Positions 1,176 through 63,893 of a stretch of 64,000 bases of DNA are shown piece by piece. The stretch's first letter is position 1; each line of letters opens with the position of its first letter. The stretch lies in the IMG/VR virus record IMGVR_UViG_3300043398_000057. One strand, written 5' to 3'. This stretch comes from a virus. The notes below the pieces were generated by a model. The model searched no databases. It was given only the letters and a program-made list of their open reading frames with translations, and was not told the origin of the DNA. Both the position numbers and the translations under genes were made by a program.

Positions 1176-1292
1176 AAGGGAATTGCCAGCAACCTTGAAA
1201 GAACTTTGCCGAGTGTCATACTCTGCAATTTTCTTATCACAGAACTTCAACTTTTCCAACAGTTCGTCATTACTCAATTTGCTTAAATCCAT
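1176..1292 (-). CDS. 43B: gp43B exon 1 (39 aa)
   Basis: MDLSKLSNDELLEKLKFCDKKIAEYDTRQSSFKVAGNSL: second fingers helix and start of motif B (Q..K...NS); AAGGAA RBS upstream. Confidence 0.88.
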
Positions 1293-2356
1293 ATACATTC
1301 CTTTATTGTTTGCATGTTCTCAATTATAGCAGACTTTGGGTAAAATTTGAAACCATAATCGGCCATCGTTTTCCCTACATGATCAACCAAGAATGGAATA
1401 GCTTGAACTCTTCTTTTTGTTATTCTCATATCGAGTTTTCTCAGAATGTTCTAATCGACTCTTTTGACACCAATAAATTTTGCGAATCTTGTAGTATTGG
1501 CAAACGCATAAGTTTTACCATTGTAAGGGAATGTCCAAACGCCGGAAAAATTTTGTGTAGCCGAATACTCGGTGTATTCTCTTCTTGTAGTACCATCAAA
1601 AATATCAACGTATATCGGTTCATTGAAATTGTTGTTTTTGTATATTCTACCCGGAACCAAATTATCTGGTTGTGTACCTTTGTAATATCTAAAATTTTTC
1701 AAAGTTTCTGGACAGTGAAACCAATTTTTGTGACCGTTCATTATTCCTTTAAGTTTGATATTTCCTTGAAAGAAACCTTCCGGTACTATTTCCGAATCAG
1801 AGAAATATCTAACAACGCCATATCTATTACTATGAGCGGTCTTACCGGATAGTGATTTTGATTGTCTCTTTTTGAATTCATTACTTCTTCTATTTCCCAT
1901 ATTTGCCGGAACTAACTCACCTGTTGAGATTCTAGGATCATCTTTGAATACAAGAAAAGAATCGCCAGATAGGTTCTTTACTGTAACTTTTCCAACCATT
2001 TCTTTCTTGAGTAATTGTCTATGCTATTCAGCATCGTAACCATATAATTCAATTTCTTTCCAGCAATTTTCATCAACGCTTTTCCTCAAAATCTATTTCA
2101 CCGAATTGAGCATGAGTAAAGATTTTGTTATTTTGTATAGAAGTAAATGCGCTTTAGCATGATTGATTAAAGATAGCTTCGCGCAGTTCCAAGGATAATC
2201 GGAGAAACTTCTATATTCCGGGAAGATACTTTTTGGAAGTATGTGGTGCATATCCACAAATTCAGAACTTTCTTCCTTACTACAAAGTGCTAGATATTCA
2301 TCTATTAGATCGTTTTCACCAAACTTTGAAACTAGAGTTTTCTTCTAATCTATCAT
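1283..2356 (-). CDS. Free-standing HNH (Mob-like) homing endonuclease, 357 aa, with 4 in-frame TAG
   Basis: ATGA overlap with gp43A stop; HHILPKSIFPEY...WNCAKLSLINHAKAHLLLYK motif; TAG at 2345-47, 2093-95, 2024-26, 1451-53; ends TAA overlapping gp43B start; AT-rich. Confidence 0.82.
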
Positions 2357-3909
2357 ACAGTAACACCGCGCTTTTTAAGTTCATTTTTGATTTGAGTCTT
2401 CAAATCCTTGTACTTGAGCATTTCCTTCTTTGCAACTTTACGACCATCGAAAACCTTTTCAGTTTCTCGCGCAATGAATCCAAGTTCATCTTTTCTAAAC
2501 ATTGCACCGTTTGCCAACATGGCGTAATTCATTGACTTGAGGTATTCGCCCAAACCAGAGATGCCTTGTTTCAGAACCAATTCAACGTTGATTTTTGTGT
2601 TTTCATCAACCGGTCCATAACCATTGGCGATAGCCCATTCATTGAAATGTGCAGCTTTGAACATTCCAACAAAGGTTTCGGTTGAAAGGTTTGATGCCAT
2701 CATGATAGATGGATACTCGGATGTTGCATCAACCGAACAAGCCCACTTGTAAAGGCCCGGCTTAGGCGTCATCACATAACCACCTTCATATGGGTATGAT
2801 GGACCCTTTTCACCATCAATACAGACAAGTTTCTTATCGAAGAACAGTGTCGAAACCAGAAGGTTTTCCCAATACCGAACAGGGCTGAAAACATCCTCAA
2901 GATTTGACCGCATCACTTGAGCAAGGGTGAATGCCAAGTTGATAAGATTCAGCTTATCATCGATTTCCACACAACGAATAACGTCAATACGGTTGTACTT
3001 TACAAAGTGAGTGTCCCATGCTTTTTGATAGTTGTCGCGAAATGATGCGTATGGCATTTCCAGCTTACCAACACCCAGCACCACAGTTGAAATATGGTCG
3101 AGCTTGTAGGTTTCCTCTTTCTTGAGGACGAACTTCTTATAGAGTTCCATCAGGTCAAGACCGGCGATACCGTAAATGTCAAAATAGATGTTGGTTTCTT
3201 CTTCATCCCATTCAGACTTTTCCTCACGCTGGCGTACAACCCCAAATGGCGACAATTCATTAACAAATTCTTCACCAAGGATTTTGGAGATACGAACACA
3301 GAGATATGGAATATCGAACAACCGGCAACGCCATCCGGAATAGATATCAAGATTCAGAGTCTTCCAGTAGCGAATGAATTCGCGAAGCATGATATCTTCG
3401 CTTGTGTAATACTCGTAGTCAAACTCTTCATTACCGTAGTATGGACGACACGAAAACGTTTTCACCCGTTTGAAATTCTTGTCATAGATGGTGATCAACG
3501 TGATCATCTCAGCGGCAATCTTAGGTTCAGGGAACCCGGTCGAATACTCACCGACAGTCGTTTCAATGTCGATAAACCCGATTTTCAGGTCTTCGAAGTC
3601 ACCCGAATAGTTTTGAGGGAAGTTTCGGTTGATGAAGTCTTGCGCGGAATTCTTAACACCATAGAACTTCAGGTTCTCAACATTCCCATGAGATTCCTAG
3701 AACTTGTACTGATGGTTCGTGCTATCGAATTCGACGGGCACCAAGGGTTCACCCTTCATGGTCTTGAACTCAGACTTTTCATCACCACCACGCCGGTACA
3801 GAACAGGCTTTAGCTTTTGCTTGGTCTTGAATGGCTTACCGTCTTTGTAGCCACGAATGAGAATGTCACCCTTGTAAGTGTTCCAATATGTTGGATACAT
3901 GCTTGTCAT
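2353..3909 (-). CDS. 43A: DNA polymerase B N-terminal subunit (gp43A; exonuclease and motif A), 518 aa, with 1 in-frame TAG
   Basis: ORFs 3697-3975 and 2353-3507 share a frame joined by TAG at 3697-99 (YKF*ESHGNVENLKFYG); FIDIET ExoI, YKLDHI, YNRIDV, DATSEYPSIM motif A. Confidence 0.92.
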
Positions 3910-4070
3910 CAAAATCCTTTCATCACTGTCAGTCAATGGTGCAGTGTACCATAGAAAATGGCCCCGAAGGGCCATTGTTCACACGCAAACCTTGATGATT
4001 TCGACTATGAACGGTGCAGCAAACATTGCACCAATAGCGATAGCACCGAGAATTTCTTTCATGATTTCTT

Positions 4071-12737: not shown

Positions 12738-14198
12738 TTACAGAGTTGCGCGAACTCGCTTGACGGCTTCCTTAAAGTTGCCATCACGAATATACGGTTC
12801 GGGATTATAGTCATTCATAGCGTAATACAAGATTTCGACATTCTCCCATAGAGGACCGACTTCTTCATAGTGTGCAAAAGTCTTGTATTCACCGGTCACA
12901 CAATTCATGTAAAGCGTTTGAATACCACGCTTCGATTCTTTGCCGGGATCGGTGATAGGACTCTTGTAAATGTTCTTTTCAACACGATCAACAACCACAA
13001 ACGATTGCTTCATGGCAACCTTGAGCCAGTCACGATCACATGCTTGCAGCAGAGCGCCACCCATACCGAAGACGATGTTTTCCGAAGACCAATTAGCATC
13101 CTTCAGAATCTGAAGAATTTTATTGATGCTTTGCATGTTCACACCGTCACCTTGCAGAACACGGATGCAGTCGGGAAGAACCTTGTAACCCTTACTGTTG
13201 ATGGTGTAGCCGAAACCTTCACCCAAAATTTCAAGAATCTTGGGCAAGATCACACGCGCATCACCAGAGTCGGGGCGGACAACAAAACGACCACCAGACT
13301 TGATGATTCGATCCTTGAACACGGTTGCAACACGTTCAGTGAAACGATACACATTAAAGGTATCAGCAACCGCCGAAACGATACCACCCTCACGCTCAAG
13401 CAGACTGACCATCATTTCGAGTGCGTCAATGTCTTCCTTGTTTTCACAGTCACTGTTTGCGCAAGTGACAGAGTGTTCAGAGGCGAGAACGCTGAAAGCG
13501 GGCATGGATGCATCATCTTCTTCATCCAGACCGTAATAGTCATACAAGTGAGTGATTGCTTGCATGGTATCGGTACCGTTGAAACTCAGCAAGTGACCGG
13601 AACCACCACGACCGGCAGTTTCAACCGAAGATGCGCCACGGAAACCGAAATCATGCAGTGCAAAATCCAACCCACCCATACGGTCATCATCAACGGTTTC
13701 TTGCCAGAACTGACCAATGTTCTGGCGGCACTGATACGACAGGCTTGCAACCGTGATAGGATACCAGATGTTCAGCAGCAGAGGTTCAACATAGGAAACA
13801 ACCCATGCGAAATCGGGGTGGGTGTTGGAAACACCAATCAGAGAATTCTTCAGAGGAATGACAGAACCTTCCTTTGCACCAGTGATGGTTATCGGAAGAT
13901 AACCATTGAACTCGGTCACGATTCGCTTCCAACCTTCATAGTTGAATGCACCGGGCTTCAGGTGACGATCAGCAAAACGCTTGGCACGTTCAACATCTCG
14001 CATGGTGACAGGCTTGCTCAGGTACTTCTTCACCGTGTAAACGATATCCCAAACAACACTTTGTTCGATACCAACGGTATCACCACGACTCTCGATGTAA
14101 GAGAATGCATAGGTAGTGTTTGCAGGTTCCATCTTCCAGTGACCAACCTTGTAGGAATCGGTCAGCAGGGGCAGAACATCAGAGAGAAAATCAGACAT
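12738..14198 (-). CDS. nadV: Nicotinamide phosphoribosyltransferase (NAMPT)
   Basis: TDSYKVGH, LHDFGFRG, ASEHS, VRPDSGD, QGDG, FGMGGALLQ motifs. Confidence 0.95.
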   Translation of the reverse strand: MSDFLSDVLPLLTDSYKVGHWKMEPANTTYAFSYIESRGDTVGIEQSVVWDIVYTVKKYLSKPVTMRDVERAKRFADRHLKPGAFNYEGWKRIVTEFNGYLPITITGAKEGSVIPLKNSLIGVSNTHPDFAWVVSYVEPLLLNIWYPITVASLSYQCRQNIGQFWQETVDDDRMGGLDFALHDFGFRGASSVETAGRGGSGHLLSFNGTDTMQAITHLYDYYGLDEEDDASMPAFSVLASEHSVTCANSDCENKEDIDALEMMVSLLEREGGIVSAVADTFNVYRFTERVATVFKDRIIKSGGRFVVRPDSGDARVILPKILEILGEGFGYTINSKGYKVLPDCIRVLQGDGVNMQSINKILQILKDANWSSENIVFGMGGALLQACDRDWLKVAMKQSFVVVDRVEKNIYKSPITDPGKESKRGIQTLYMNCVTGEYKTFAHYEEVGPLWENVEILYYAMNDYNPEPYIRDGNFKEAVKRVRATL

Positions 14199-14223
14199 TT
14201 GAAACTCCTTCAAATTGAGGTTG

Positions 14224-14253
14224 ATGTTTACTTGGGTCTATCCCGTTCAACAT
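14224..14253 (-). promoter_or_regulatory. 5'-UTR structured motif upstream of nadV
   Basis: AUGUU-GAACGGGAUAGACCCAAGUA-AACAU, just downstream of a TTGCAC/TGCTACAAT promoter; 20-nt core identical to 15374-15393. Confidence 0.7.
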
Positions 14254-14292
14254 GTTGAGATTGTAGCACCCTTTGAACCCGGGTGCAATAGG

Positions 14293-15403: not shown

Positions 15404-15694
15404 TTACTTTACCAGTTGGAATGTCTTTTTGTCAACCTGTTGACGCCACAAAAACACGTTCGTCATATGGGCATACAACCTACCTACAGATTGATCACCA
15501 AGAATAGAGTAACTGTAGCACAGTTGCCCCTTTTTGATTGGTTCACGTTCAAGTTGGTTGATGAAGTATTCCCAAAACAGTTGTGATTCTTCAGTCTCAG
15601 CGTTGTCAAATTCTTGAATCGCTTGATCAACTACAGCACACCAACGGTTTTTCTTGACCGATACAATCTTCGTAGCCTAAACGTTTCCGGTCAT
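15404..15694 (-). CDS. Hypothetical protein, 96 aa, TAG at codon 6
   Basis: ATGA overlap with upstream gene; MTGNV*ATKIVSVKKNRW... open to TAA; fills an otherwise empty gap. Confidence 0.7.
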
Positions 15695-20657: not shown

Positions 20658-21564
20658 TGATGTTCCCCATAAAGTTGTCCAGACCCATGGTGACGAAAAA
20701 GTTCATCATTTTCATGGTGTTTTTCTTCTTTCCTTGATGTGAGGTGTACTGGTTCACGATTCTCTCACGAATCGACACGGGAATCTTGGCGAAGTCTACC
20801 AAAATTTGATTTCTCATGAACCTTTGCTTCTGAATATCGTCTTCAAAAGGTAGTGGTTCACCAGCCATCATCTTTTCATAGAAGGTGTCGATCAACTTTT
20901 GTGAAACTGGTGGTTGTCGCTTTTCCTTTGTAACAAACTGATCATCAGGGGACTTGAAATTCGGAACACCGTCACCTTCATCACCTTTCATGATCTTTGT
21001 CAACAAATCAAGTTTTGGGCGTTCAGAAACAATCATGGTGTCGTCACGCTTTGAGTATTGCTGAACATTTTCGTGAACTTGCAGAGACTTGTAATCATGG
21101 TCAGAAGACACGATCAAGATAGATTCAGATTGCTCGAACACACCGCGCATTTGAACCGTGTTTTTGGTGATATAACGGGTCAAAACGCCGATACCATCAT
21201 CAGCTTCAGCCTTGTCATCTCGAATCGCAATCCATGGAAGATACTCATTCACATCATCATGAAATTCATTCAGGTACTGATTGAACAGATTCCAATTGAT
21301 TGCTTCCGTCTTGCGCTTTTCTTTTCTGGCAGATTTGTAATACTCGAAAACATCGTTACGCCAAGTGTTGCTACCATCAACACACATAACAATTTGTCCG
21401 AAGTCTTTTGAAAACTTTCGGTTGACGTTAAGCATTTGACTCAAGATGTGACCATAGAGGTATTTCTTGGTTTCATCATCAGGTTTACAGAACGATGCCT
21501 TTAGGTATGGGTCAGCGTGTAGACTCGCAACCGCTAGACCGTTGGTGTCCACAAGAATTGTCAT
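20647..21564 (-). CDS. rnh: T4-type RNase H (5'-3' exonuclease)
   Basis: WRNDVFEYYKSARK, EADD, SSDHDY, GDEGDGVPN, RNQILVDF. Confidence 0.93.
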   Translation of the reverse strand: MTILVDTNGLAVASLHADPYLKASFCKPDDETKKYLYGHILSQMLNVNRKFSKDFGQIVMCVDGSNTWRNDVFEYYKSARKEKRKTEAINWNLFNQYLNEFHDDVNEYLPWIAIRDDKAEADDGIGVLTRYITKNTVQMRGVFEQSESILIVSSDHDYKSLQVHENVQQYSKRDDTMIVSERPKLDLLTKIMKGDEGDGVPNFKSPDDQFVTKEKRQPPVSQKLIDTFYEKMMAGEPLPFEDDIQKQRFMRNQILVDFAKIPVSIRERIVNQYTSHQGKKKNTMKMMNFFVTMGLDNFMGNINEF

Positions 21565-21899
21565 TTTGGCGTGATCCCCAAAGCCTTGTCAGACTTGTTC
21601 ATGTGATACTTTTGCAAAATGAACAGCAAGCAGCAAATCGCATGGGCGGCATGGTGCTTACCAGATTCTTCATCAAGTTCGATACCATCCAACATATCAA
21701 GAATGTGACGCAAAACAGCGTCATCATAACGATAGTCTTCAACGTTCATGTAGTTGCCACGGGCGTACTTTGCTGCACCCATTTCAAGCACATCAATAAC
21801 GTCACGAAATGCCGCGATGAGGTCTTTCAGAATCTATGTGGGGCGAGGCTTGCCGCCATCAAATTTAATGCCACCAAGCTCGTTCTTAGGCGTTTCCAT
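21561..21899 (-). CDS. dATP/dGTP diphosphohydrolase-like (DUF5664), TAG at codon 22
   Basis: GIKFDGGKPRPT*I...VLEMGAAKYARGNY...DEESGKHHAAHA; family pattern GK.r..Ll puts Leu at the TAG. Confidence 0.82.
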
Positions 21900-26319: not shown

Positions 26320-26577
26320 TCAGTCCTGATACAGACAAATCAATCGATAACGATTGTAGGTAACACGACGACCCGAACGAACCTTGGTTACCGGTTCAGA
26401 AATAATGTTGAAACCATCAACAATGCAACGCTTTCGCAGACGACAAATTTCAGCGGTGGGCTTTTCAATCTTGAACTGTGCCCGAATCTGTGCAGAGGTA
26501 AGGGGTCGATCCTTCAGTGCCAGATACAGGCGTTCGATCTTTGCAGTCTTCTTAACGGTCTTGGTTGTCTTGGTCAT
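26320..26577 (-). CDS. Putative winged-helix DNA-binding protein
   Basis: LTSAQIRAQFKIEKPTAEICRLRK helix-turn-helix pattern. Confidence 0.55.
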   Translation of the reverse strand: MTKTTKTVKKTAKIERLYLALKDRPLTSAQIRAQFKIEKPTAEICRLRKRCIVDGFNIISEPVTKVRSGRRVTYNRYRLICLYQD

Positions 26578-27008
26578 GTAGATTTCCTTCTATAAGTTTT
26601 GTAATCGATGCCAGCTTCGATAAGCATCGAGATTGAAAAATCAGGGTTCCAACGTTCGGCAAACTCTGGTTCGGGCTCATACCACACAACGCGAGAAATG
26701 CCACTCTGAATCAGCATCGATGTGCAGTTTGAACATGGTGGATGGGTGATATAGATTGTAGCACCCTCAACCGATGTTCTTGCAGTGAGTCTAGCATTCA
26801 ATTCAGCATGAATTACGGTCTTGTATTTGATTTCTCGGGTTTCAAGATACCTTTCATCATCTAACCCGGATGGAATACCGTTGAAACCCTATGAAATGAT
26901 TCGGTTATCCTTGACAATGGTAGAACCAACTTGTGTTGAAGGGTCTTTCGACCACGACGACACAAGTTGTGCCATCTCAAGATACCGTCTATCCCACTTT
27001 TCAGACAT
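26574..27008 (-). CDS. cd: dCMP deaminase, TAG at codon 40
   Basis: SKDPSTQVG...RIIS*GFNG...HAELNA...PCSNC. Confidence 0.9.
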
Positions 27009-27687: not shown

Positions 27688-28362
27688 TTACTTCTTCCTT
27701 GCTGCAACCTTCTTAGCTGGAACCTTCTTTGATGCAACCTTCTTCGCGGGTGCCGCAGATTGAAGCAGTTCCATAGCTTCGAAGTATTCCTTACGCTTTT
27801 GCAAACGTTCAATGATTTGTTCAGCATCAAACCAGAATTCCATACCCATGATGACCTTTTCAATTTCGTCTTCTGAGAGGAAACCTTCATAAACCTCATG
27901 CACGAACTTGTTGACCCACTTGTTCGAGAATGAGGCGTATGCGTTGATGTTGTTGTCGGTACCACCATAGCCGTGCGATGCGGTATGGATCATCATTGTA
28001 GCACCGGGAAGAATGATTTGTTCGTCACATCCCAAAAGAATCATGGAACCGGCAGAGGATGCCGAACCAACATGAATGCCGCGAATGTGCGCTTTGGTGA
28101 TAGCCATCGCATCAAGAATTGCGCGGCACGATTCCATCATACCACCGGGGGTGGCAAAGAACATGTCAACTTGATCACTCTCAGTCGCAGAGTAAAGAAA
28201 GTCAAGCAGTTTTGAATACTGCATAACATCCACAATGGGACCATAGAACCGTGCCTTGGCAACGTAGTTCGTCAGTGGAATCTACTCAAGCTCAAATGGC
28301 ACCCGCGTTTCATCTTCATCAAGATCGATTTCGGTCTTTGGAGTTGTCTTTTTGGTTGTCAT
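27688..28362 (-). CDS. ClpP-like serine peptidase, TAG at codon 27
   Basis: TPGG, ASSAGS, MIH motifs; upstream ATG with RBS is in frame through FELE*IP. Confidence 0.8.
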
Positions 28363-37693: not shown

Positions 37694-37765
37694 GATGTTC
37701 TTTCTGTTGAAAGTTGTGTTGCGATGGAATGAATTATGGCCCCGAAGGGCCATGTTGTCAAGCGA

Positions 37766-38380
37766 TTATTTGTAGTTTTTCAGCTACATTTCAAAAAGTT
37801 TCTTTCGATGATCAAGACCGTTCAGACCACCATTGATCTTCTTTGTCAACGCTTCAATGTTTGATGCCAGTGGCGTACAGTTTCGATCTTTCCAGAACCA
37901 GATTGCCGAATCGCAAGCACCCTCAATAGTCTTCAAGAATTCAATAGTTTCGTCAACGGTCTTACCGCGATACTTTGCGTAAGCCTGAACGTTGAACTTC
38001 CCGGTCTATTGAATGAAACCTCTACCAAGGTACTTTGAACCGTCACCAGAGGCTTCGTCACCATTACCCATACGATTTGCATACACACGGTTTGCAATCT
38101 CTCTAGGCTTTCTGGCGTACTGTTTGGCCTAGCTTGGGGTGAAATACTTCCCAAAGGTCTTCAACAGACCTTCTTCCGAATAGTTAAGATTCTCGCTCAT
38201 GTACATGAACCCACCGGACTCATGACCGACTTGCGCCTAAAAAGCACACATCACAGTTTTGTCATCAAGACCATTCAGAACAAGCAAAGGGTACATCGAT
38301 GCCGAAACATCAATCAACCTTTGCTTGGGGATATCTGTAAAAACCGTGATCAACAGTTCTTCAAAAAGTTTTTGGTTCAT
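37766..38380 (-). CDS. GH19 endolysin, 204 aa, with 4 in-frame TAG (missed by the ORF track)
   Basis: CAF*AQVGHESGGF..MSENLNYS...IANRVYANRMGNGDEASGDG.KYLGRGFIQ*TG...SAIWFW...TKKINGGLNGL.HR; TAG at 38237, 38129, 38006, 37784. Confidence 0.92.
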
Positions 38381-38383
38381 ACT

Positions 38384-38425
38384 CATTCCATCGAGTGTTA
38401 GATTTCTTACTTACTCGATGGAATG
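38384..38425 (-). promoter_or_regulatory. 13-bp inverted repeat over the endolysin translation-initiation region with an embedded TAAGTA late-type element
   Basis: CATTCCATCGAGT (38384-96) / ACTCGATGGAATG (38413-25). Confidence 0.7.
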
Positions 38426-41913: not shown

Positions 41914-41996
41914 GATGTAGATTCCTTGGAAAGTTGTGTTTCAGTGCTTGCAGTTTATGATAGTTCTGAGAACCTGTCAAGCACTTTCTCAAACAT

Positions 41997-48054: not shown

Positions 48055-50526
48055 TTACCCTAGATCGGTCAAGTTGTCAGAATACTTCTTGTGGTTGTAG
48101 AAAGTCTTGACTTGTCTTCTGTTCGTACCACGGGTAAAGCTAATGTGAATCCATGGATTGTTTGCTGCAACCGAATACTCAAGCAAAAGTTGATCATAGA
48201 CCGGCAATTGTTCAGACAAAGCCTTAGCAATCTCGAAATAGTCTTTCTTCGACACACCACGGAACTGAATGTCAAACGCTTGACCGTTGATGTGCTGGCT
48301 TGTCTTTGATGATGCCGCAACCGTTCTGAAACCAGATGTTACAAACATCGATGGATATGAACGTTTAACATTCTCAAGAACATTGATGCAACCGGCCTGC
48401 AAGTTACAAATGATTTCTTCTTTGGTCAAACCATTTTGATCAACGACTTGATACTTCGACACAGCAGCCTTGGATGAAACATCAGCCAAAGTAAAGTTTG
48501 GCGACAGTCTCAAATCATCAGGGTAAGATGTAAGACCCGCGATAGCAGCACAGTCAGCCTTAATCGGTGCTTGGTTAGACGTTTGAACTTCGGCTGTGTC
48601 ACCGGCTTCCGGCATCTTGGCGGCTTCGTCAGGGTCGATATAACCTTTCTTGATTCCATCAGAAATCATACCCGAACTGTCACCATCTTCAGGAAGTTCA
48701 AACGTCACAACCGATGCGTCAAATCTTCTATTTGGTGTCGGGTCTGATGGGTTGTTTCCACCGTTACCGGGCGAAGGTTTGGGTTGACCTGAAGATTCTG
48801 CAACACCAGAATTCATATGAACTTGGGAACCATCAAGTGCAATGTTTCCGCCAGCCTTGATCGAAACACTATCAACAGCTTCAAGTTTGATTTCTTGGGC
48901 GACAACGTTCAAGTCTTGCGCAATTCTCAAATTTGCATCACCGGCAATCTCACCGGTCAGGTTTCCGCCAACTGTAAGGTTGCAATCACCACCAATCGTT
49001 ACATTGCATTGACCCTTGATGTAGATGTAACCATTTTTGTCAATGATTTCATAATCTGAGCCAACAATGCGAGTGGTTCGTGAACCAGTGTTGTCAATCT
49101 CAAAATATGAACCAGACCTATGGTAAACGTGAATACGTTCACCACCACTGGTATCATCAACTTCAATCACATGACCAGACTCTGACTCGAAAACTTTATT
49201 GAATGGATACTGCGCTGAATATGGACTAGGTTGTTCAGACCAAGTTTTACCAACAGTGTTGATACCAACAGTTCGGTTAGAGTCTTTTCTGGCAACAACA
49301 GTTTTAGAGATGTTTTCGCCACGGGCAAGACGGTTAGTGTCCTGTTCCTTGACATATCTCGGAAACTTAGAATTGGGGTCTTTGAAACCAATCTTGCCAG
49401 AATTGATGATTTCCTTGTTTGCCTTGATGACACTGAAAGTCTTGGGGTCTTCCATGTTCACAGGTTCGGCAACACTTGTTTGTGCGCCACCCATGAAGTA
49501 TTCATAAAATGTTCTCTTTCGCTGTGCAATATCGGGAGTATTGAACCCCACAGCAGATTTAGCAACATCAAAATATGTCGTAGAAGACTGCGAAATCTTA
49601 CAACGATCAAAGAAATATGCACACGCAACCTTTGCCGATGCAACAGGATCAGTGTTCAAGATTTCAGGATTTGAAACAATGTCAATACCGGAAAGTTTCG
49701 CATAACGTTCATAGTTTGCCCGACCGGTCAACTGAATGAAACCTCGACCGATGAATTTTGCTCCATCCCCGGGCATGGTGTTGCCCAAATTCTTCCCCTT
49801 TTTGGTTGTATGACCATAGAGAAATTCTGGCAAGTCTCGTTCATTGTTGGCATACTGGTTAGCCAATTGGTCATTATCACCGAAGACAGATGGGAAAACT
49901 TCTTTAAGCCTCTTTGCGGAGTATCGGAATGATTCTCTCTTCGGAATCCATGCACATTCACCACCAATGATACCAAGCAATGAAGAAATTGAGCGTCTTG
50001 TGTTAAACCCTTGACTTTTAGCAACATCGATAATCAGTTTGATATTCTGACTTGCGATTGCCGAATTCTGTGTGCCAGCCGGTGCAACAGTGGGAATCTT
50101 CGAAATGTCGTCAAGGTCATCAATCGGGCGAACCGGTTCAGTGGTTTGAGATTGAACCGGCGCGGGGTTCGCAGAATTTGGAAACTCCTGTTCAACCGGT
50201 GCAACACTGATTGATTCGTCACCACCAGATGCTAGAAATGCATCCATTTGTTGAGGAATGCCAACAAACGTGCCCACAACAAATGGCTTTTGCTGTGCTT
50301 CATCTGCAAACCAGATGAAAACCATCGAACCTTCAACAATACCTGTAGGTGAAATGCCAACACCAGAAACCGAAGCGTTGTTGACCCCTGAGATGATTGT
50401 TGCCCAAGGCAATGCATCCGTAGGAACTTCCTCAATTTTTTCGCTGTGCACGCCGAAAACACGCACGCGAACACGACCCTACTTCAGAGGATCGTTTCTA
50501 TCTTCAACAACGCCAACATTGAACAT
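48055..50526 (-). CDS. 5: Baseplate hub/tail lysin gp5-like, 823 aa (OB fold + GH19-like + beta-helix + peptidase M15), TAG at codon 16
   Basis: VGVVEDRNDPLK*GRVRVRVFGVH versus T4 gp5 VGVVEDRMDPLKLGRVRVRV; GRGFIQLTG; ESESGHVIEVDDT; SGFR...SQH..GQAFD...WIHIS. Confidence 0.93.
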
Positions 50527-52249: not shown

Positions 52250-53110
52250 TTAATACCCCGATCCTGTTGTGCTACCATCAATCATTGAACGGTCAATAGT
52301 TTCAACTTCAGTGAAAGTAAGGTTCATGGTGCAATCATTGAAATTTCCGTCACTGTGCATGTACATTGCATTGTTTGGTGAATAGTCAACCGAAACTTCA
52401 GTCAGTGCGCAAGGCAAAATCTTTGGAATCGATGTGATTTCATTTTTGCCCGTGAAGAACTGAATCTGAAAGAATGCAGGGAACAACCAAAATGCGTTAC
52501 CGGGCGAAATGGAAGGCGCGGCATAGAAACGGAACGTCTTGATGATTTCTTGAACGTCACGATGTTCCTTGGCATTCTTGGGGTTGAACGTCCAGTTGAA
52601 CGTGAATGTTCTGAAGTTGATACCACGGAAGAACTGTTCTTTGAAATCTCGTTCAGTCTGACGAATCGCACCCTTGATAAAGCCACTAGCCTTTGCGCTG
52701 TTGATCGCTTTGCGCTTGATGTAGTCTTGGGTCACACCTTCAACGCCACCTTCTCTAAAGGCTTCCAAAGCCTTTGCAATGCCGGTCTGTGATTCCTGAG
52801 TCCATTCCATGTTCTGATTGAACTGAATGTTAGGCGGAATGGGCAAAAAGATGGAACGGTCAATCTGTTCAACCCCTTGACGGGTTTTGAAACTGAATTC
52901 GAATTTTGACTTCGCATCAGGCGCGGTAACATCGGGATCAATAGATTTGTCCTTGACCTATGAACCATCGCTTGCAACAGTGGTCAATCGCTTGGATTCT
53001 CCCAAGAAAGAATTTGACTTTGTATCGAGAATCAAAATTCTCGTGTATGGAACACCTTCAGTATTTGACAGGCTGTTCTATTCATTTGGGTAAGCTAGGA
53101 TTTTGCTCAT
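52250..53110 (-). CDS. 48: Baseplate tail-tube cap gp48-like, 286 aa, TAG at codons 11 and 51
   Basis: ILAYPNE*N..., IFLPIP, FRGINFRTFTFNWTFNPKN..E, L.F.EVE. Confidence 0.85.
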
Positions 53111-53117
53111 TCTTGGT

Positions 53118-53151
53118 TGTTCCTAAATAGGTATCACGTTATTTAGGAACA
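53118..53151. promoter_or_regulatory. Overlapping divergent late-type promoters (CTAAATA on each strand) in a 12-bp inverted repeat
   Basis: TGTTCCTAAATA ... TATTTAGGAACA between divergent gp48 and GIY-YIG genes; resembles the T4 TATAAATA late promoter. Confidence 0.7.
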
Positions 53152-53155: not shown

Positions 53156-53599
53156 ATGACATGGATTTTCAACGATAAAGAAATGGCATCACTCGAAGAT
53201 TTCGAGGAAGGTACCATCGGTTTCATCTACATGATCACAAACATTGAAACCGGTAGGAAATATATCGGTAAGAAGATTCTGACAGGTGTTCGGAAGGTTC
53301 AGAGAGTTGTGAAACTCAAAACAACCGGCGAAAAGAAAAAGAAAAGTGTTCGCAAGACTGTTGAAAGTGATTGGTTGACCTATTACGGTTCATCACCAGA
53401 ACTTGCAGCCGATGTTGAAAAGTTTGGCCGCGAAATCTTCAAAAGAGAAATCATTCACCTTTGCCGTAGCAAGGCCGAAATGAGCTATCTCGAAACCAGA
53501 GAAATCTTTACCCATGATTGTCTTTTGAAACCGGAAGAATACTACAACGGATGGGTAACTTGTCGCGTCACGCGCGCACACCTTAAGAATCTTCAATGA
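53156..53599 (+). CDS. GIY-YIG nuclease-family protein
   Basis: GFIYMITNIETGRKYIGKK...ESDW.TYYGSS...FKREII...YYN; the only convincing plus-strand gene. Confidence 0.85.
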   Translation: MTWIFNDKEMASLEDFEEGTIGFIYMITNIETGRKYIGKKILTGVRKVQRVVKLKTTGEKKKKSVRKTVESDWLTYYGSSPELAADVEKFGREIFKREIIHLCRSKAEMSYLETREIFTHDCLLKPEEYYNGWVTCRVTRAHLKNLQ

Positions 53600-54006: not shown

Positions 54007-54945
54007 TTATTCTTCGGGGTAGTCGTGATTACGCAACAGTTGGCGAAGTTGAACCCAACGCCGGAAGTTACCGCTACACGGAATCGAGAACAGACCCTTA
54101 GAATCTCGCTTGATGTGGGTCACACCAGCATCAGTGAAATCCTGAATCGGGGTGCCCTGGTGTTCAGCGGGTGAGCTATGCGAACGTTCTTCAGTGCGCA
54201 CCGGTTGATCAAGGTGCAGCTTCTGAGCAATGTCATCAGCCTTTTCAACAGAAGTGTCGTGCTTTCGATAAGAAGTCTGTGCGCAACATGACATGGAAAT
54301 CTTCTTCGCGGTTTCCAAATCGATAACGTCACCACGTTCATCAAAGAAAACTTGCTTACCTGCAACGAATTGTTGATTCACATATGGAAGGTGCCATTGA
54401 CCGGGCTCAAGCAGAACCGGTTCAGAATTGTTCAAAGCGGTTTCCATGAGGTGCGCCAGATAGTTAAATTCCGGTTGCGCGGCATCATGATTGCGAAGCC
54501 AGAAAAAGTTCTTCCAATCGGTTGCGGTCAGAACCATCTTTTGCATCATGATGGGTTCCAAGAATCGCCCGGCAAGTTGCTTGTGGAACTTCTTCTGATC
54601 AAGAATGGTGGCAGCGTCGATACAGTTGCCAACAAGCACACGCCAAATAGCTTTCACTTCTTCAAGTTCTTCACCTTCAAACTGATCATCGGCACTCATG
54701 CCGGGCTTGTTGATACCCCAAAAGTTAGGTTCAAAGTAATTGCCATTTCGAATGTTTTCAATTTGCTTGGCAAGCGGAATTGCGCGAGAACTCGAACCAT
54801 TCTTAGAAACCATCTTGTGCGTGTTCTATTCGGCCAAAATCGGGCGAGGGAACTCGACTTCGTATGTAACCAGCGGAACGCCAATACGCGAAATCGAATG
54901 AGCAATGATGTTTACAGAAGTCTTGTTAGGATGAAAGTTACGCAA
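54007..54945 (-). CDS. thyX: Flavin-dependent thymidylate synthase, TAG at codon 40
   Basis: TTG start with GGAG RBS; FPRPILAE*NTHKMVSKNGSSSRAIP; HKQLAGRFLEP, FFWLRNH..AQPE, HSSPAEHQ. Confidence 0.9.
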
Positions 54946-55187
54946 TGTAATACTCCATAAATGTTGATGACGAACTATTGTACCACAGAAATGCAATGGG
55001 GCAACTAGTCCCTTAACCAGTTGCCCCAAGGGTCTTACCAATACTTCCTGCGAAGAAAAGCCTATGACGACGATCACGGGGTTAAAATGGCCTTGTGTGT
55101 ATCAACCCATCCTACACACAATTTTTTAGCGATGTTGCGCGTTACAACAAGGGAAAACGTTGCACTAAGCGTTGCTGGCCTTTCTTG

Positions 55188-55264
55188 TGGTCTTCCCGGT
55201 AGGATTCGAACCTACGACCCTCTGCTCCCAAAGCAGATGCGCTACCAGACTGCGCTACGGAAAG
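55188..55264 (-). tRNA. tRNA-Pro(UGG)
   Basis: Cloverleaf, anticodon loop TT TGG GA, encoded CCA. Confidence 0.93.
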
Positions 55265-55282
55265 ACAAAACTTAAAACTTGT

Positions 55283-55367
55283 TGGTACCCCCGGTCGGAA
55301 TCGAACCGACACGCCTTTCGGCGGCGCTTTTAGAGAACGCTGTGTCTACCAATTTCACCACAGGGGC
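55283..55367 (-). tRNA. Amber-decoding tRNA(CUA) on a tRNA-Leu scaffold
   Basis: GCCCCTG TGGTGAAATTGGTAGACAC A GCGTT CT CTA AA AGCGC, long variable arm, GTCGGTTCGATTCCGAC, CGGGGGT A CCA; anticodon at 55331-55333. Confidence 0.93.
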
Positions 55368-55394
55368 ACACGAACTCTATTGTACCAGAAATTT

Positions 55395-55468
55395 TGGTGC
55401 CCATGCACGGTATCGAACCGCATTCTATGGCTTACAAAACCATTGCATCACCTTAATGCTTCACGGGC
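55395..55468 (-). tRNA. tRNA-Thr(UGU)
   Basis: ATGGT TT TGT AA GCCAT anticodon arm, CCA. Confidence 0.85.
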
Positions 55469-55500
55469 GTCCTAAACTTTTCACATTATACCACATAACT

Positions 55501-55591
55501 TGGCGGGGTGTGTGAGATTCGAACTCACGGAACGCTATTAACGTTCGCCGGTTTTCAAGACCGGTGCATTAAACCACTCTGCCAACACCCC
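55501..55591 (-). tRNA. tRNA-Ser(UGA)
   Basis: CCGGT CT TGA AA ACCGG, long variable arm, G73, CCA. Confidence 0.93.
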
Positions 55592-55770
55592 ATCAAATTG
55601 AATTTGCGGAACTTCCCAAAAACTTCGACGCCTTTCGGCTCCATCTAAGGGAACGTTTTAACTCGTGTTCCATCGAGATTAGCTACATTTTTGTTACCGG
55701 AGTCTAACCCGATTTCTTCGTACAGACTGCAACCATGTCTGTACTATCTAGGGACCACCTAGAACGTCAC

Positions 55771-55845
55771 TGGCTCCGAAGGTAGGGATCGAACCTACGA
55801 CCAATTGATTAACAGTCAACTGCACTACCGCTGTGCTACTTCGGA
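55771..55845 (-). tRNA. tRNA-Asn(GUU)
   Basis: GTTGA CT GTT AA TCAAT, CCA. Confidence 0.93.
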
Positions 55846-55853
55846 ATTGTTTT

Positions 55854-56366
55854 TCACTTTTTTAAGAAGTAACCTCTTTTCGGAACCTCAATATCAAAAT
55901 GTTGACACCACTTTTTCACGGTTACGTCTGACACGTTGTAAATGCTTGCTATTTTTGTCATTGGCATTTTCCAAACTATATCAGAAAGTTCTTCTTTTGT
56001 TATTTGAAACTTTACTCTATCATCACTCGCACATTTTGGTGAACAATACTTTTGTTCACTTTTGTTAGTTACCTCGAAAGAAACTTTGCACTTTGTACAT
56101 GCACGATATTCTTTGATTACGTTCTTATCTTCTCTATGGTGTAACGCTGCATGTTCCGAGTTTGTCATTAACATCAAATTGCTAATATGATTGTTTTTCC
56201 TATTTCTATCAATATGATGTACACACTCGTCTGGTAGCAACAGTCTACCAATATGCTAACACATTACATAAACATGTTCCATGACTTTACCTGCACCGTT
56301 AGCATAAATGCTTTCCGGATTATAGCAATACATGTAACCTGTTCCAACATCTTCTCTAAAAATCAT
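55854..56366 (-). CDS. HNH homing endonuclease in the tRNA cluster, TAG at codon 37
   Basis: GYMYCY...EHVYVMC*HIGR...ECVHHIDRNRKNNHISNL...EHAALH; C-terminal Zn finger and HTH. Confidence 0.85.
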
Positions 56367-56369
56367 TTT

Positions 56370-56457
56370 TGGACTCCCGTGGAGGTATCGAACCTCTCGA
56401 CTTCCATCCTGCGGTTTAATGTCGTCGGCTTAGAAGACCGATGCGGGGACACGGGAG
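56370..56457 (-). ncRNA. Atypical tRNA-like RNA (UCU anticodon arm, no D arm, 8/4 acceptor/T stems)
   Basis: CTCCCGTG/CACGGGAG-T-CCA; TCGGT CTTCTAA GCCGA; GAGG TTCGATA CCTC. Confidence 0.7.
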
Positions 56458-56478
56458 GTCTAAAAACTTAAAACTTGT

Positions 56479-56563
56479 TGGTGCCCCGGGTCGGACTCGA
56501 ACCGACACTCCTTTCGGAACCGGATTTTGAATCCGGTGCGTCTACCAATTTCACCACCGGGGC
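56479..56563 (-). tRNA. tRNA-Leu(CAA)
   Basis: CCGGA TT CAA AA TCCGG, long variable arm, A73, CCA. Confidence 0.94.
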
Positions 56564-59555: not shown

Positions 59556-62500
59556 TCAATTGTTTTTCTTGTACTGCCTACCGAAGACGTAGTTCGCGTA
59601 TTCCTTGTAGCCTTGACCCTTCTTGATCATCAAATCTTCGCCATGAGTCATGATGTTGAACGATGTTGAGTCATTCTCAATTCTGACAACAGGGCCGCGA
59701 CTCGTTCTATACACTTCAACATCAGGGTTCTTAAACATGCCGTCTTCATATTCACGATAGTCAATAACACCATCATTTGTTGGAATCATACCATCAGTGA
59801 AAATGAATTCGATCACATGTTTAGGAGTTTGATACTTCATGGTGGACTCGTCAATTTGAACCGATTCGGTAAGCGAGTCGATGCTTGTTTGCAACCATTC
59901 ACGCAGTTTCTTAGTTGACGTTGTACGAACCTTGAAAACCTTCACAATCCGAATCATCATCTGTGGCGCGTTCACCGCGTATTCGGGCGAAACCAAACGA
60001 CTCGGATAACCATTTGGCAAACCAGTGTTACCACCATACCACCAAGTCTTACCAATTTCACTATTGGAAGTTGGCTCATAAACTTCAAGTTGGAACAAAT
60101 AACCAATTTCGTCATATGTTCGCGCGTAACCATGATCCGAAATGTACTGTTGTGACTTGTCGGCAGTTTGGGTGTAGTAAATGCCGTTGACTTTCGCTGT
60201 ACCTTCCTGTGCCTTAACTTTTACATCATTGACCTTATAGTTAGCAAGATAATAACCCTTTTTGTAGGCGTCATCAAGGCTTGGGAAAGGATCATTTATA
60301 GCACTGATTTCAACCGCTGGCTTAGTGTCATCAAATCGTCCGAATCTGAGATTCTTACATTCCAACATTTTACCAGCAACCTTAATCGGCCCGCCACTCT
60401 TCAAAAGTTTGAAACCGTATCGAGTGATGAAAGTTGCAGCGCGAGAACCGCAACCATGGAAAACATCAGTTCGCAATTTGTACTGAACATTGTTGTCGGC
60501 CCAAATTTTCAACATTGCGGCAATCATCTTTTCATCACTGATTTTCGATTCAAAAATGTCTTCAACAATCATCGCAAAGTCACCATGCTTACCATTTGAA
60601 CGATCAGCAAGATATTTTGTGGCTTCGATCCTATCCTTCAGCGATGGGTTTGCTGGAGTAATCATCTGAGGTTTAACGTAAGGCGTGAAATTATCAAAAT
60701 CGATGGTATCGGGATCAACACCTTCCATGATCGAATCTGTGTCAACTTCATTAACCCACATCAACTTATGAATAAGACCGGCTTCCAGTGGTTCATTAGG
60801 AACAATCGGGCTACCTTCATTGTAAGACTTTGCAACACGTTCACCAGCGGCAAAGTAAATGACCTTCTTCTTAGCTTCTGGTGGAAGCGACTTCATCGCT
60901 TCAGTAAACCCAGGTTCATCATTTCGCGCAGCAAAGAATCTGTAAGCACTTTCGATAACTTTCTCTTTCTTCAGGTTTCGAGACTTGTCATATTGACGGA
61001 ACGCCAATTCGATAGTTTTTTGATCACTGATAAGACTTGCAAATTCCGTGATATCAACAGCTTGTGAACCAGTCGGGGAGAAAATCTTTTGACCGACCGA
61101 CAATGAGTTCATCGCGATATTGTAGAGTTCGGGGAAAAGTTGAGCCAACTTTGTCGCAACATCAGAGTCCATGATAGACAGTGATGGAACGTTTTTGATG
61201 TTTGGTTCGGTACCGTAATTCAATTGGGCATCTTTCCAAAGATTCACAATTCGTTCGGCATCGGCCATACTACCGGCACTATTGAGCAAAATACCTGAGA
61301 ATGACTGATTGATTTGATCAGCGTAGTTTTCAAGAATGAATTCTCTAAACTTCTTTGAAATTTTGCTGGCGACACGGAACAAAGAACCGATGAAAATTTC
61401 ATGAACGTTCGTTCTATAACCATCGAGAAGTTTGTCAAACAGTGCAGGATGAACATCAACGTAATGATCCAATGAGGCGTTCAACAAATCGAACGAATCG
61501 TGCACTTCGGCATGGCGAATCATGGAAGTACAGGTTTCAGTTTCCAAGATTTTATGCGCAACGTTTGTGTGAATGTTGACAACCGAATCATGGAAGTACA
61601 GCGCGAAGTTGCCATAGTTTTTGTTGTAGAACGCCGAAATACACCAGTCAACGAATTTTTCGTTAGTTTTACGGTATTCAATGATTTGAGCGATTGCTTG
61701 GAAATGAGTATCAGAAAATTTGTCGGCAGGGTGAATATCAGCAATCAGTCTAACAAGATTGGCAAGGTTTGGCGGAATGCATGAGGTGTCATAGTACCTC
61801 GAATAACTATCAAACTGTTGCAAAAATGTTTTATACTTTGATGCGTCATCAAGATTGAACGAATTTGCATCCTTTTCATATTTTGCAAAAATCTCGTTCA
61901 GTGAACCACTTTTGTATTTTTCCAGTTTGAAAGAAATTGGAACAAGTTTGTAGTGACCCAAGTATTCCGTGCTATCAAAATTCTTCAGTGCTTCCATGAG
62001 TGCATCATATTCAGCATCATCAGAAACCACATACTGATCATATGTGTCCATGGCAAGTGCCAAAATAACATCGGGGGTTTTCTCGAATGTAAATTTGTCA
62101 TCGCCTATCACACCAACGGGGAAGAACTGCTTACAAGCTCTGAACGCGCACACGCTACCACCACTAAGATGGGGTTTGAATTCCAACTCGCCGCTGCGCA
62201 TAGAATAGTAGCTGTAATTCGAAAAATCGTCCTTACCCGTGTTCGTCAGCGTAGAACCCGGGAAAATCTCAGAGAAGTTGACCAACATCCAACGTTGGGC
62301 GGAATTGATTGTACCAAAGTCAACACTTGATGGAGCGTTGAAAATATACTGAGCCAGCATCAACCAAAAGAATTCATTACCGGTTGCCTTTTTGTAGAAA
62401 CCAGAATTCACCAAACCCTTCATGAAAGAATCAAACCGTGCGCCGGAATCGGATTCATCCACAACAAATCTGACGGTGTTTTTCGGATATTGTTCAAAAG

Positions 62501-63893
62501 CATGGAATGCATAATCATATGCACTCTTCGAACTGTAATAGTATGACGAACGATAGAAATACTTGTTGACCCCCTTTGAGTTTCGTTCTGTTGAAATGTT
62601 GTACTCATATTTTGTTGCCTTGAAATATGCATCAAAAAACTTCTTGGCATTATCCTTATCGGCGTTTGCGATGGCATCATTGATTTTGTAAGAGTATTTG
62701 TACATGTCATCATTAGCGTTGATGTATTCCAAAAACTCTGTAACATCAACACGCTTGGCAACCTTATCAAATTCACCATTGATCAAGTTGACAAACATGT
62801 TCTTCATTTGCAATGGCGTAAACGATGATGGCGCGGCCAAAGTCTTACTACCCTTTGGTGCACGACCGCGTTTTGCCGGTGCTGTAGCAACCGGTGCCGG
62901 TGAGGGAGTTGCAACCGGTGCCACAACCGGTGCCACAACAGGTGCAACAGGTGCCACAACCGGTGCAGCAACAGGCGCGGGAGTAGGTGCAGGCGTTGCA
63001 ACGCGAGACACAAACGGTTGCGAGAATTGCGAAACGGGCGTAACCAATGGTTGAACAATTGGACGAACCACGGGCTGAACAACGGGTGCTGTAGGCACAA
63101 CAGTGGCAACAGGTTGAACAATTGGACGGGGCGGGGTCACAACCGGTGCTGGAACTGGTGTGGGTGCCACAACAGGTGCCGGTGCTGGAACTGGTGTGGG
63201 TGCCACAACAGGTGCCGGTGCTGGCGTGGGCGCAGGGGTTGCAACCGGCGCAGGCGCGGGCGGAGTCACACCAGCTTTAGGTGTACCCTTGGGACCAAGT
63301 TCACCAACAATCTTAGGGTCATACGAATCGAAACCGTTTGAGCCAACATAGTGAGTTGCAAGCCGCTTAAATTCAGCAGCAACCTTTTGACGAGCCTTAG
63401 AGTAGCCTTGAATGTCTTGCCAAACAAGAACACCAACTTGTTGAATGCTGTATGTGCCGGTGCGCCACTTGGTGAACTGATTCTTCAGAATCGTCGATGG
63501 TTTGAAATCCGGATCACGCAACATTTCCTTTGCAAGACCGCGCAAAATAGTTTCATCAATTTGACTTGACGACAAGTTGCCTTGCTTGATCTTGGCGAAC
63601 AGAAGCGTGAACTTGTCGGCCAGAACCCGACTCATAACACCACCTTCAACAGCCAGCTTCACCGACAGTGAAATGTCATTGTTTGCGTCACCAATGTTGT
63701 CAAACCGAATCGACTTGTCATTGATGAAATAGTTCTTAACAGCGTGACCACCTTGAGTATCACCAATGGCATACAGACCAAGAATGCCAAAAATGTTGAT
63801 AATCAGTGCATCAGACTATTGTTGCTTGTCGGCAACCAATGCATCCTTTTCTTGGGCATTGGTGTAAAAGGTGTTTTCATACAAACGTTTCAT
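59556..63893 (-). CDS. Large Alt-like putative virion ADP-ribosyltransferase, 1445 aa, TAG at codon 26
   Basis: MKRLYEN start is in frame through KQQ*SDAL; C-terminal VFHGCGS...GF...GIYYT..ADKSQQY...PEYAV (PARP-like H-Y-E); TAAGTA upstream. Confidence 0.72.
62870..63275 (-). repeat. Pro/Ala/Val/Thr low-complexity coding repeats
   Basis: Tandem PAPAPVVAPTPV and APVV units within the large ORF. Confidence 0.85.

Follow-up and report, generated by a model that had tools for sequence, protein, structure and literature searches.

TAG codons probably read as leucine in a divergent T4-like freshwater phage that encodes its own tRNA-Leu(CUA)

IMG/VR record IMGVR_UViG_3300043398_000057, analyzed here as a 64,000-nucleotide stretch of viral DNA (the 64-kb window), carries TAG codons inside otherwise intact genes together with a tRNA gene having the anticodon CUA. 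Judging from its sequence, the phage very probably decodes UAG as leucine by means of this tRNA-Leu(CUA) of its own. The in silico analysis establishes the in-frame TAGs, the absence of TAG terminators, the Leu columns in homologous proteins, the build of the tRNA, and conservation in related strains. A Leu reading of TAG had been proposed in the original prediction, made from the letters of the window, and it is supported by profile scores, homologue columns, a paralogue within the same genome, codon swaps with a related phage, and the tRNA type.

The original prediction counted 21 in-frame TAGs in 14 otherwise intact genes, and a script run over 14 curated genes returns exactly the same 21, all on the minus strand. 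The genes are listed below, and each TAG is given by the coordinate of the first base of the codon (ORF, open reading frame; NTP, nucleoside triphosphate).

1283..2356, minus strand, HNH-1 homing endonuclease; TAGs at 2347, 2095, 2026, and 1453; matched by phrog_655
2353..3975, minus strand, gp43A, the N-terminal part of a split DNA polymerase; TAG at 3699; matched by phrog_262 over residues 22-533
15404..15694, minus strand, orf15694, a small ORF; TAG at 15679; no family match and a low codon score
15947..16264, minus strand, MazG-like NTP pyrophosphohydrolase; TAG at 16201; matched by phrog_4856
21561..21899, minus strand, DUF5664 / dATP-dGTP diphosphohydrolase N-terminal domain protein; TAG at 21836; matched by PF18909
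24694..26256, minus strand, phrog_1745 Zn-ribbon protein, whose N-terminal CxxC...CxxC pair spans the TAG; TAG at 26187
26574..27008, minus strand, dCMP deaminase; TAG at 26891, crossed by the PF00383 alignment
27688..28362, minus strand, ClpP-like protease; TAG at 28284; matched by phrog_1827 from residue 36
37766..38386, minus strand, GH19 endolysin; TAGs at 38239, 38131, 38008, and 37786; matched by phrog_181 and by solved GH19 endolysins in PDB
48055..50526, minus strand, gp5 baseplate hub and lysozyme; TAG at 50481 (residue 16); matched by Pfam Gp5_OB
52250..53110, minus strand, gp48 tail-tube cap; TAGs at 53080 and 52960; matched by phrog_230
54007..55041, minus strand, ThyX, start codon uncertain; TAG at 54828; matched by Pfam Thy1
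55854..56366, minus strand, HNH-2 endonuclease in the tRNA cluster; TAG at 56258, crossed by PF13392 and phrog_15471
59556..63893, minus strand, a 1445-residue protein; TAG at 63818 (residue 26); matched by phrog_18612, function not assigned

About 17 of the 21 sites are crossed by one continuous profile or structure-sequence alignment (Pfam, PHROG, or PDB), and the conserved genes are interrupted by TAG only, never by TAA, TGA, or a frameshift. The functions affected are replication, nucleotide metabolism, baseplate, lysis, and homing endonucleases. The start of HNH-1 overlaps the stop of gp43A as ATGA, and its frame of 357 codons is broken by nothing except TAGs, the first of which is residue 4. 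PDB matches of gp43A are the RB69 and T4 polymerases, with alignments that begin only past the TAG, and a PDB search with ThyX gave no match. In the ClpP-like gene, there is no start codon from the TAG to the first aligned residue (36). In the ClpP-like, gp48, and 1445-residue protein genes, the reading frame has positive codon scores both before and after the TAG, and the other frames have negative ones; the codon scores of the Zn-ribbon protein are near zero upstream of the TAG, positive downstream, and likewise negative out of frame. A control of these scores that set TAG against TAA and TGA gave no discrimination, because neighbouring genes often share a frame.

Four of the sites hinge on the choice of start or end: those of orf15694 and the 1445-residue protein, HNH-1 residue 4, and endolysin 37786. 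The weakest is that of orf15694, a frame with no homologues, and that of the 1445-residue protein rests on codon scores and on a GAGG ribosome-binding site upstream of the ATG at 63893. Most of the gene names used in the original prediction stand by Pfam, PHROG, or PDB, whereas two found no confirmation: for the “Zn-phosphoesterase” the match is phrog_1745, a family labelled “DNA transfer protein,” and the “Alt-like ART,” which is the 1445-residue protein, has no Pfam match and a sole PHROG match to phrog_18612, of unknown function.

A CUA tRNA of Leu architecture had been placed at 55283-55367, and it is indeed found there by ARAGORN on the minus strand, with a full-length Rfam tRNA match of 48.4 bits. 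It belongs to a tRNA cluster (55188-56563) of Pro, CUA, Thr, Ser, Asn, and Leu(CAA) tRNAs, of which two are of concern here.

55283..55367, minus strand, tRNA(CUA), Leu-type class II, 85 nt, the proposed UAG decoder
56479..56563, minus strand, tRNA-Leu(CAA), the probable duplication source of the CUA tRNA

The two genes align without a gap and are identical at 69 of 85 positions (81%). They have the same D-arm, a CCGAAAGG variable-arm hairpin in common, and nearly the same T-arm, and behind both lies an identical 16-nt trailer, ACAAGTTTTAAGTTTT. Most of their differences fall in the anticodon stem, GCGUU/AGCGC in the CUA tRNA and CCGGA/UCCGG in tRNA-Leu(CAA), both of which are paired, and in pair 6:67, which is changed from G-C to U-G in tRNA(CUA) and is still a pair. 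From these features, tRNA(CUA) looks like a maintained, functional gene. The CCA end is encoded in the gene. The tRNA has A73, which argues against the Ser type with its G73, and its variable arm is long, which excludes the Gln and Ile types. ARAGORN labels the gene tRNA-Pyl; this label comes from the anticodon alone and was rejected, because a tRNA-Pyl would have a short variable loop, a compact D-loop, an extended anticodon stem, and pyl genes nearby, whereas this tRNA of 85 nt combines its long variable arm with a D-arm of the canonical Leu type. Bacterial leucyl-tRNA synthetase (LeuRS) ignores the anticodon and recognizes A73 and the tertiary core. The LeuRS of the host should therefore charge tRNA(CUA) with leucine.

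Leu-type CUA tRNAs were also sought elsewhere by pattern scans. The scan of IMG/VR gave two chance matches, neither of them a tRNA, and that of one genome per GTDB species, made with this D-arm, gave one chance match and no tRNA, while JGI metagenomes gave one genuine but unrelated Leu-type CUA tRNA. The scans demand this particular D-arm, and their blanks are therefore weak evidence. A class-II, Leu-like CUA tRNA of 88 nt with A73 is present at 64-151 of JAAUYK010057417.1 (L010), an unrelated 1.5-kb metagenome contig; thus, Leu-type amber suppressor tRNAs exist outside this phage clade.

Other parts of the tRNA cluster are as follows. The HNH-2 gene is placed between tRNA-Leu(CAA) and tRNA-Asn. 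About 100 nt between HNH-2 and tRNA-Leu(CAA) (56370-56470) are tRNA-like by eye, with a T-arm-like GGTTCGATACC, and are called by neither ARAGORN nor Rfam. Between tRNA-Ser and tRNA-Asn, about 170 nt (55600-55770) have no ORF and no Rfam match above threshold; the region recalls the small stable RNAs of the T4 tRNA cluster.

Which residue is inserted was judged by hmmscan bit scores per gene, with TAG translated as different residues, a rough form of the Codetta method. Summed over 10 genes, the scores are 1353.2 bits for Leu, 1351.9 for Ile, 1334.8 for Gln, 1332.7 for Ser, and 1331.5 for Tyr. Gln, Ser, and Tyr are thus about 18-22 bits below Leu, so the residue is an aliphatic hydrophobic one. 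This amounts to the profile hidden Markov model check of TAG columns suggested in the original prediction, done on genes of the window: Leu is best. Scores of single genes, in bits, are these.

Endolysin (phrog_181, four TAGs at once): L 208.6, I 208.2, A 205.2, M 204.8, V 204.3, F 204.0, and lower, Y 201.0, S 201.0, Q 199.9, K 198.8
ThyX (Pfam Thy1): L 33.3, I 32.9, Y 31.3, S 30.3, Q 30.0
DUF5664 (PF18909): L 77.4, Y 75.4, I 75.3, Q 74.7, S 74.5
gp5 (phrog_430): L 134.2, Q 133.7, I 132.5
gp48 (phrog_230): L 133.8, I 132.2, Q 131.4
gp43A (phrog_262): I 429.0, L 428.0, Q 426.4
HNH-1 (phrog_655): I 79.7, L 77.8, Q 77.3
MazG-like (phrog_4856): I 54.9, L 54.0, S 53.3, Y 52.9, Q 52.0
dCMP deaminase: all residues within 1 bit
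HNH-2: Q 131.0, L 128.6

Leu and Ile are told apart by the aligned columns of real homologues. In the 150 nearest endolysin representatives, the column of TAG1 (residue 50) holds L96/I38/F6 and that of TAG3 (residue 127) L104/I28/V10, and the TAG2 column is variable with Leu commonest (L31, T27). The ThyX column holds L89, V16, and F10 among 119 homologues, the nearest of which (70% identity) has Leu, and the DUF5664 column is Leu in eight of eight homologues. Log-odds over these five columns, computed for all 20 residues, are +12.2 bits for Leu, +0.5 for Ile, -2.3 for Val, -7.5 for Phe, and -12.2 for Gln. Furthermore, the genome has a comparison of its own: the lysozyme domain of gp5 is a 28% identical paralogue of the endolysin, with Leu opposite TAG1, TAG2, and TAG3. 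The internal control named in the original prediction, GRGFIQ-TTG-TG in the gp5 GH19 domain, is present at 49731.

By sequence comparison, the most direct evidence for Leu is the codon comparison with a related phage, represented by three contigs from SRR30451274 with 75-83% nucleotide identity to the window and in-frame TAGs of their own. At four sites the relative has another codon in place of a window TAG, and each time it is a Leu codon: 52960 by CTT (L001), 21836 by CTG (L007), and 38239 and 38008 by TTG and CTG, respectively (L009). In the reverse direction, TAGs of the relative stand opposite CTG at 21830, CTT at 22793, GTA (Val) at 20134, TTC (Phe) at 52588, and CAG (Gln) at 50190 of the window. 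Leu is accordingly found at six of nine differing sites, both directions taken together, for which P(>=6/9) is 5.5e-6 at the genome Leu frequency of 6.5%. In DUF5664, TAG and CTG are swapped between the window and L007 at positions two codons apart. TAGs at 50481 (L001), 38131, and 37786 (both L009) are common to the two phages.

Several points weigh against a Leu code as set out here. In the 10-gene sums, Leu exceeds Ile by only 1.3 bits, which is no separation, and gp43A, HNH-1, and MazG slightly prefer Ile. HNH-2 (Q +2.4 bits) and dCMP deaminase (Q/Y about +1 bit) slightly prefer a polar residue. For HNH-2, the original prediction had itself cautioned that a polar residue would fit equally well, and the score bears the caution out; the dCMP deaminase column is variable (G/V/T/T/H in PDB homologues) and therefore uninformative on the residue. 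The gp5 column had been offered as evidence for Leu. Leu is indeed what T4 gp5 and a relative, L002, have there, but the solved spike protein 9f4a has Gln, and the column is less decisive than claimed. The TAG of the SRR30451274 relative opposite CAG at 50190 falls in a variable gp5 linker. In addition, endolysin TAG 37786, only five codons ahead of a TAA, could be a genuine terminator. The tail of five codons past it is identical in the SRR30451274 relative, and it overlaps a repeated promoter-like element (see below), so the TAG may be a terminator and the identity of the tail may reflect the overlapping element, not translation. tRNA(CUA) has two wobble pairs, G1-U72 and U6-G67, which may affect its processing or charging. 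Decoding is predicted here from DNA, with no RNA run among the listed sequencing runs, and the counts cover the 64-kb window out of the 144,862-bp contig on which the window proteins are located.

Some of these points would suit a phage that reads TAG as Gln (code 15), as the crAss-like and Lak phages do, or as another non-Leu residue (Tyr, Ser, or Ile): the closeness of Ile in the profile sums, the slightly polar columns of HNH-2 and dCMP deaminase, the one TAG opposite CAG, and the Gln of the gp5-like spike. A public gene caller took the Gln view, too, since DUF5664 of the relative (L007 1347-1685) is found in a public protein collection translated “with_TAG=Q,” with Gln where the window has CTG; the entry shows pipelines mis-assigning the code as code 15. 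Such readings are nevertheless very unlikely. Gln falls short of Leu by 18.4 bits when profile scores are summed and by 24 bits in the log-odds over five columns, where Ile is 11.7 bits below Leu; no TAG is swapped to Ile, Tyr, or Ser in the SRR30451274 relative; and the tRNA has A73, is 81% identical to tRNA-Leu(CAA), and carries a long variable arm that tRNA-Gln and tRNA-Ile do not have. Code 15, tested by Gln columns and a Gln-type tRNA, was rejected, with Gln 18-24 bits behind and the tRNA being class II and Leu-like.

TAG is purged from gene ends and used as a rare Leu codon. Greedy codon-usage gene maps with TAG as a sense codon contain 97-100 genes, of which 57-59 end in TGA and 40-41 in TAA, while in a map under code 11 the only ORFs ended by TAG are fragments of gp43A and the endolysin. 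The claim that genes end in TAA or TGA is thus borne out: there is no independent TAG terminator in ~100 genes, and the only candidate is endolysin 37786. At a TAG-stop rate of 10%, the probability of 0 TAG ends in 97 is 3.6e-5, and 2 of 20 genes end in TAG in the relative L002 (~38% protein identity), which has no in-frame stops and uses the standard code. TAG has a frequency of ~1.06 per 1000 codons, comparable to those of the rare codons TTA and ATA, and accounts for ~1.5% of Leu codons. Coding density rises from 84.5% under code 11 to 88.5% with TAG as sense, a gain of four points on a crude gene map; the large gain expected of recoded phages is absent here. A more distant relative, seen in L011 and L012 (Logan DRR804116; ENA ERZ28614686; ThyX 70% identical), has no in-frame TAG in ~20 kb and no TAG stop in 29 called genes. 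The codon may be avoided there altogether, or the sample may be too small.

That the TAGs are sequencing or assembly errors, or belong to decaying pseudogenes of a defective phage, would be conceivable for a metagenome-assembled contig, and homing endonuclease genes do often decay. The chance of this is close to negligible: TAG is the only interruption, genes as essential as those for DNA polymerase, gp5, and gp48 are affected, and a cognate tRNA is present. As for errors, which the original prediction had thought worth checking, a separate Logan assembly of the likely source run covers a 19-kb stretch at ~20-24x with 0 differences. TAGs are also kept in related strains from other samples, namely, in the 75-83% identical relative and in L008, an ENA contig from another assembly that is 98.2% identical and keeps the TAG at 21836, the only TAG it covers. 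Sequencing or assembly error is therefore an unlikely source of the TAGs.

Or the host itself may read TAG as Leu, and the phage would then merely mirror the code of its host. Phages that share the code of a recoded host exist (code 4, code 25). This possibility is extremely slim, since no TAG=Leu bacterium is described in the literature searched, the per-species scan of GTDB with this D-arm gave no Leu-type CUA tRNA, and a tRNA of the phage's own suggests a host without one. The sparse and 5′-biased use of TAG rather fits competition with release factor 1 (RF1).

The decoding may have come about as follows. tRNA-Leu(CAA) would have been duplicated together with its 3′ trailer to give the CUA tRNA. 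U would then have replaced A in the middle of the anticodon, and changes in the anticodon stem and at pair 6:67 would have preserved pairing. LeuRS of the host, not reading the anticodon, would charge tRNA(CUA) with leucine. The host probably keeps RF1, and each UAG would then be a contest of tRNA(CUA) versus termination. We infer LeuRS charging, actual read-through, RF1 competition, and any regulatory role from the features of the sequence. Outside the endolysin and HNH-1, the 13 TAGs, in 12 genes, all fall in the first 28% of the ORF (Kolmogorov–Smirnov p=2e-7). RF1 competition would explain these 5′-proximal positions, because early read-through that fails wastes little. The endolysin and HNH-1 are enriched in TAG, with four each (Poisson p=8.5e-5 and p=6.7e-4, respectively), and their output would therefore depend steeply on the tRNA level.

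These placements can also be read as regulation, with the same Leu decoding and no change of the code. Ambers would gate full-length translation until the tRNA accumulates, and the endolysin, the homing endonucleases, and middle and late genes would be delayed or limited. This is possible, though on the whole unlikely. The 5′-proximal TAGs, the enrichment in the endolysin and to some extent in HNH-1, and the great rarity of TAG agree with it, as does the lack of TAG in the small genes that stand in long arrays downstream of repeated sigma70-like promoters; like logic was proposed for lysis genes of code-15 phages (Borges et al., bioRxiv 10.1101/2021.08.26.457843). On the other hand, TAG is found also in replication and nucleotide genes needed early (gp43A, dCMP deaminase, and ThyX), the eight placeable TAGs of the SRR30451274 relative are spread roughly evenly along genes (0.02-0.98 of length), and the base after TAG has no leaky-context bias (chi-square p=0.70). 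It is on account of these three points that gating is something we infer only. Moreover, a complete loss of TAG terminators is the selection expected from a constitutive suppressor.

The original prediction spoke of a new code. Its Leu reading stands, while the term needs qualifying, as recoding this sparse may act as competitive suppression. Tentatively, and with limited confidence, the phage may be regarded as a natural intermediate of codon capture in which RF1 competition is exploited as a gate of dosage or timing. On the side of codon capture, a tRNA-Leu duplicate would have become an amber suppressor, TAG stops would have been purged, and TAG would be re-entering as a rare Leu codon; on the side of the gate, middle and late genes would carry 5′-proximal ambers, with multiple ambers for the endolysin and the homing endonucleases. 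If this reading is true, phage recoding extends beyond Gln and Trp, and current pipelines would miss recoding as sparse as this in environmental T4-like phages or mis-call it as code 15.

Two kinds of promoter-like elements occur in the window. A 69-nt intergenic repeat occurs at 37702-37770, 44793-44861, and 45746-45814, and also at 41911-41940. Read on the minus strand, it consists of TTGACA, 17 nt with a GGCCC-TTCG-GGGCC hairpin, and CATAAT, with an ATG ~40 nt on, and by its sequence it looks like a sigma70-type early promoter cassette before arrays of small TAG-free genes. The repeat and the end of the endolysin gene overlap, and the gene that follows may begin elsewhere than at its annotated ATG (37753). 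The other element is an inverted repeat at 53120-53150, CCTAAATA ... TATTTAGG, between the divergent gp48 gene and a plus-strand ORF at 53156-53599. Its arms hold the hexamer TAAATA, present in one copy per strand in 64 kb, and may be late-type promoters. The T4 late promoter consensus, TATAAATA, has 0 matches in the window.

The window has 43% G+C, with nearly all genes on the minus strand, and by its gene content it is from a divergent T4-like phage. T4-like identity is given by Pfam and PHROG matches to gp43 (split), gp5, gp48, gp46/gp47, RNase H, and RNA ligase 1 (RnlA), and further matches are DNA ligase, PhoH, NAMPT, NadM-Nudix, dCMP deaminase, ThyX, MazG-like proteins, a ClpP-like protease, and the GH19 endolysin. 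The gene adjacent to gp48 is the counterpart of a Phage_gp53 gene in the SRR30451274 relative (L001). The polymerase gene is split into gp43A, followed by HNH-1 and by an ORF at 1-927 that runs off the window and is presumably gp43B. A chlorophycean or chytrid mitochondrial genome, considered as a source, was rejected for the T4-like gene set (gp43, gp5, gp48, gp53, gp46/47, RNase H, and RnlA). The closest GenBank phages by gp43 protein are cyanomyoviruses, at ~35% identity; megablast of 6 kb against GenBank phages gave no near nucleotide match, and a gp5-based search for relatives in IMG/VR and JGI metagenomes found none. The DNA comes from a freshwater metagenome, and riverine metagenomes of 2018 contain 5-26% of the sampled words of the stretch, in matching contigs that are mostly 90-99% identical. 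A TAG-free pair for nicotinamide adenine dinucleotide (NAD) salvage, NAMPT (phrog_448) and a NadM-Nudix-like cytidyltransferase (phrog_395), lies at 12738-15348, and a TAG-free PhoH gene at 23607-24374. Auxiliary metabolic genes of this kind are typical for aquatic myoviruses.

Differences of code between phages and hosts have been reported only as TAG to Gln and TGA to Trp, a pattern explained by the susceptibility of the Gln and Trp synthetases, GlnRS and TrpRS (Borges et al., bioRxiv 10.1101/2021.08.26.457843). That TAG=Leu had not been described in a phage, as the original prediction supposed, holds for the phage-recoding literature searched, where TAG/UAG-to-leucine is met in ciliates and mitochondria only. 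The generalization would be broken by the present case, in which Leu would provide a third synthetase route in nature, the anticodon-independent LeuRS. Gene callers would split such genes or put Q at TAG, so that essential proteins of abundant aquatic phages would be mis-annotated, and screens by coding density would miss recoding this sparse. The phage could serve as a model for how codon reassignment starts and, with its 5′-biased ambers and four-amber endolysin, for lysis timing by suppression efficiency, and tRNA(CUA) would be a natural compact amber suppressor and a candidate tool.

Compared with code-15 phages (crAss-like, Lak, Garnet/Topaz, and phAss-1; Peters et al., PMC9523058), the window is alike in having in-frame TAG in conserved genes, avoiding TAG as a terminator, encoding a CUA tRNA, and loading a lysis gene with recoded stops, and its host, too, probably uses the standard code. 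It differs in the probable residue, Leu and not Gln, in coming from a freshwater T4-like myovirus and not a gut phage, and in a TAG use of ~1 per 1000 codons that is 5′-proximal outside two genes. The gain of four points in coding density is to be set against the 10% used in a coding-density screen of jumbo phages (PMC13037316). As far as its sequence goes, the window has the defining features of a stop-codon-recoded phage save a large coding-density gain.

Phage tRNAs(CUA) have been assayed by mass spectrometry in E. coli extract: 28 of 29 gave Gln and 1 gave Ala (bioRxiv 10.1101/2025.10.30.685624 / PMC12636597). One further pair gave Tyr, and none gave Leu (PMC12636597). The tRNA described here is like them in being a phage-encoded CUA tRNA with charging, in its case predicted, by a host-type synthetase. 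supP (Su+6) of E. coli is an amber suppressor derived from tRNA-Leu(CAA), with the anticodon CUA, and it inserts Leu efficiently. The likeness is close: in both, a one-base change from CAA to CUA is seen in a UUG-reading class-II tRNA-Leu with A37 and A38 behind the anticodon. However, supP arose by laboratory mutation of a host gene, while the tRNA here is a natural, conserved, and duplicated phage gene, in a genome that is adapted to it by having no TAG stops and by carrying TAG in essential genes. UAG=Leu itself is shared with NCBI tables 16/22, known from chytrid and chlorophycean mitochondria, and with phyllopharyngean ciliates (PMC11687900). Those are whole-genome codes of a cell or organelle in unrelated lineages, whereas here a virus would be overriding the code of its host.

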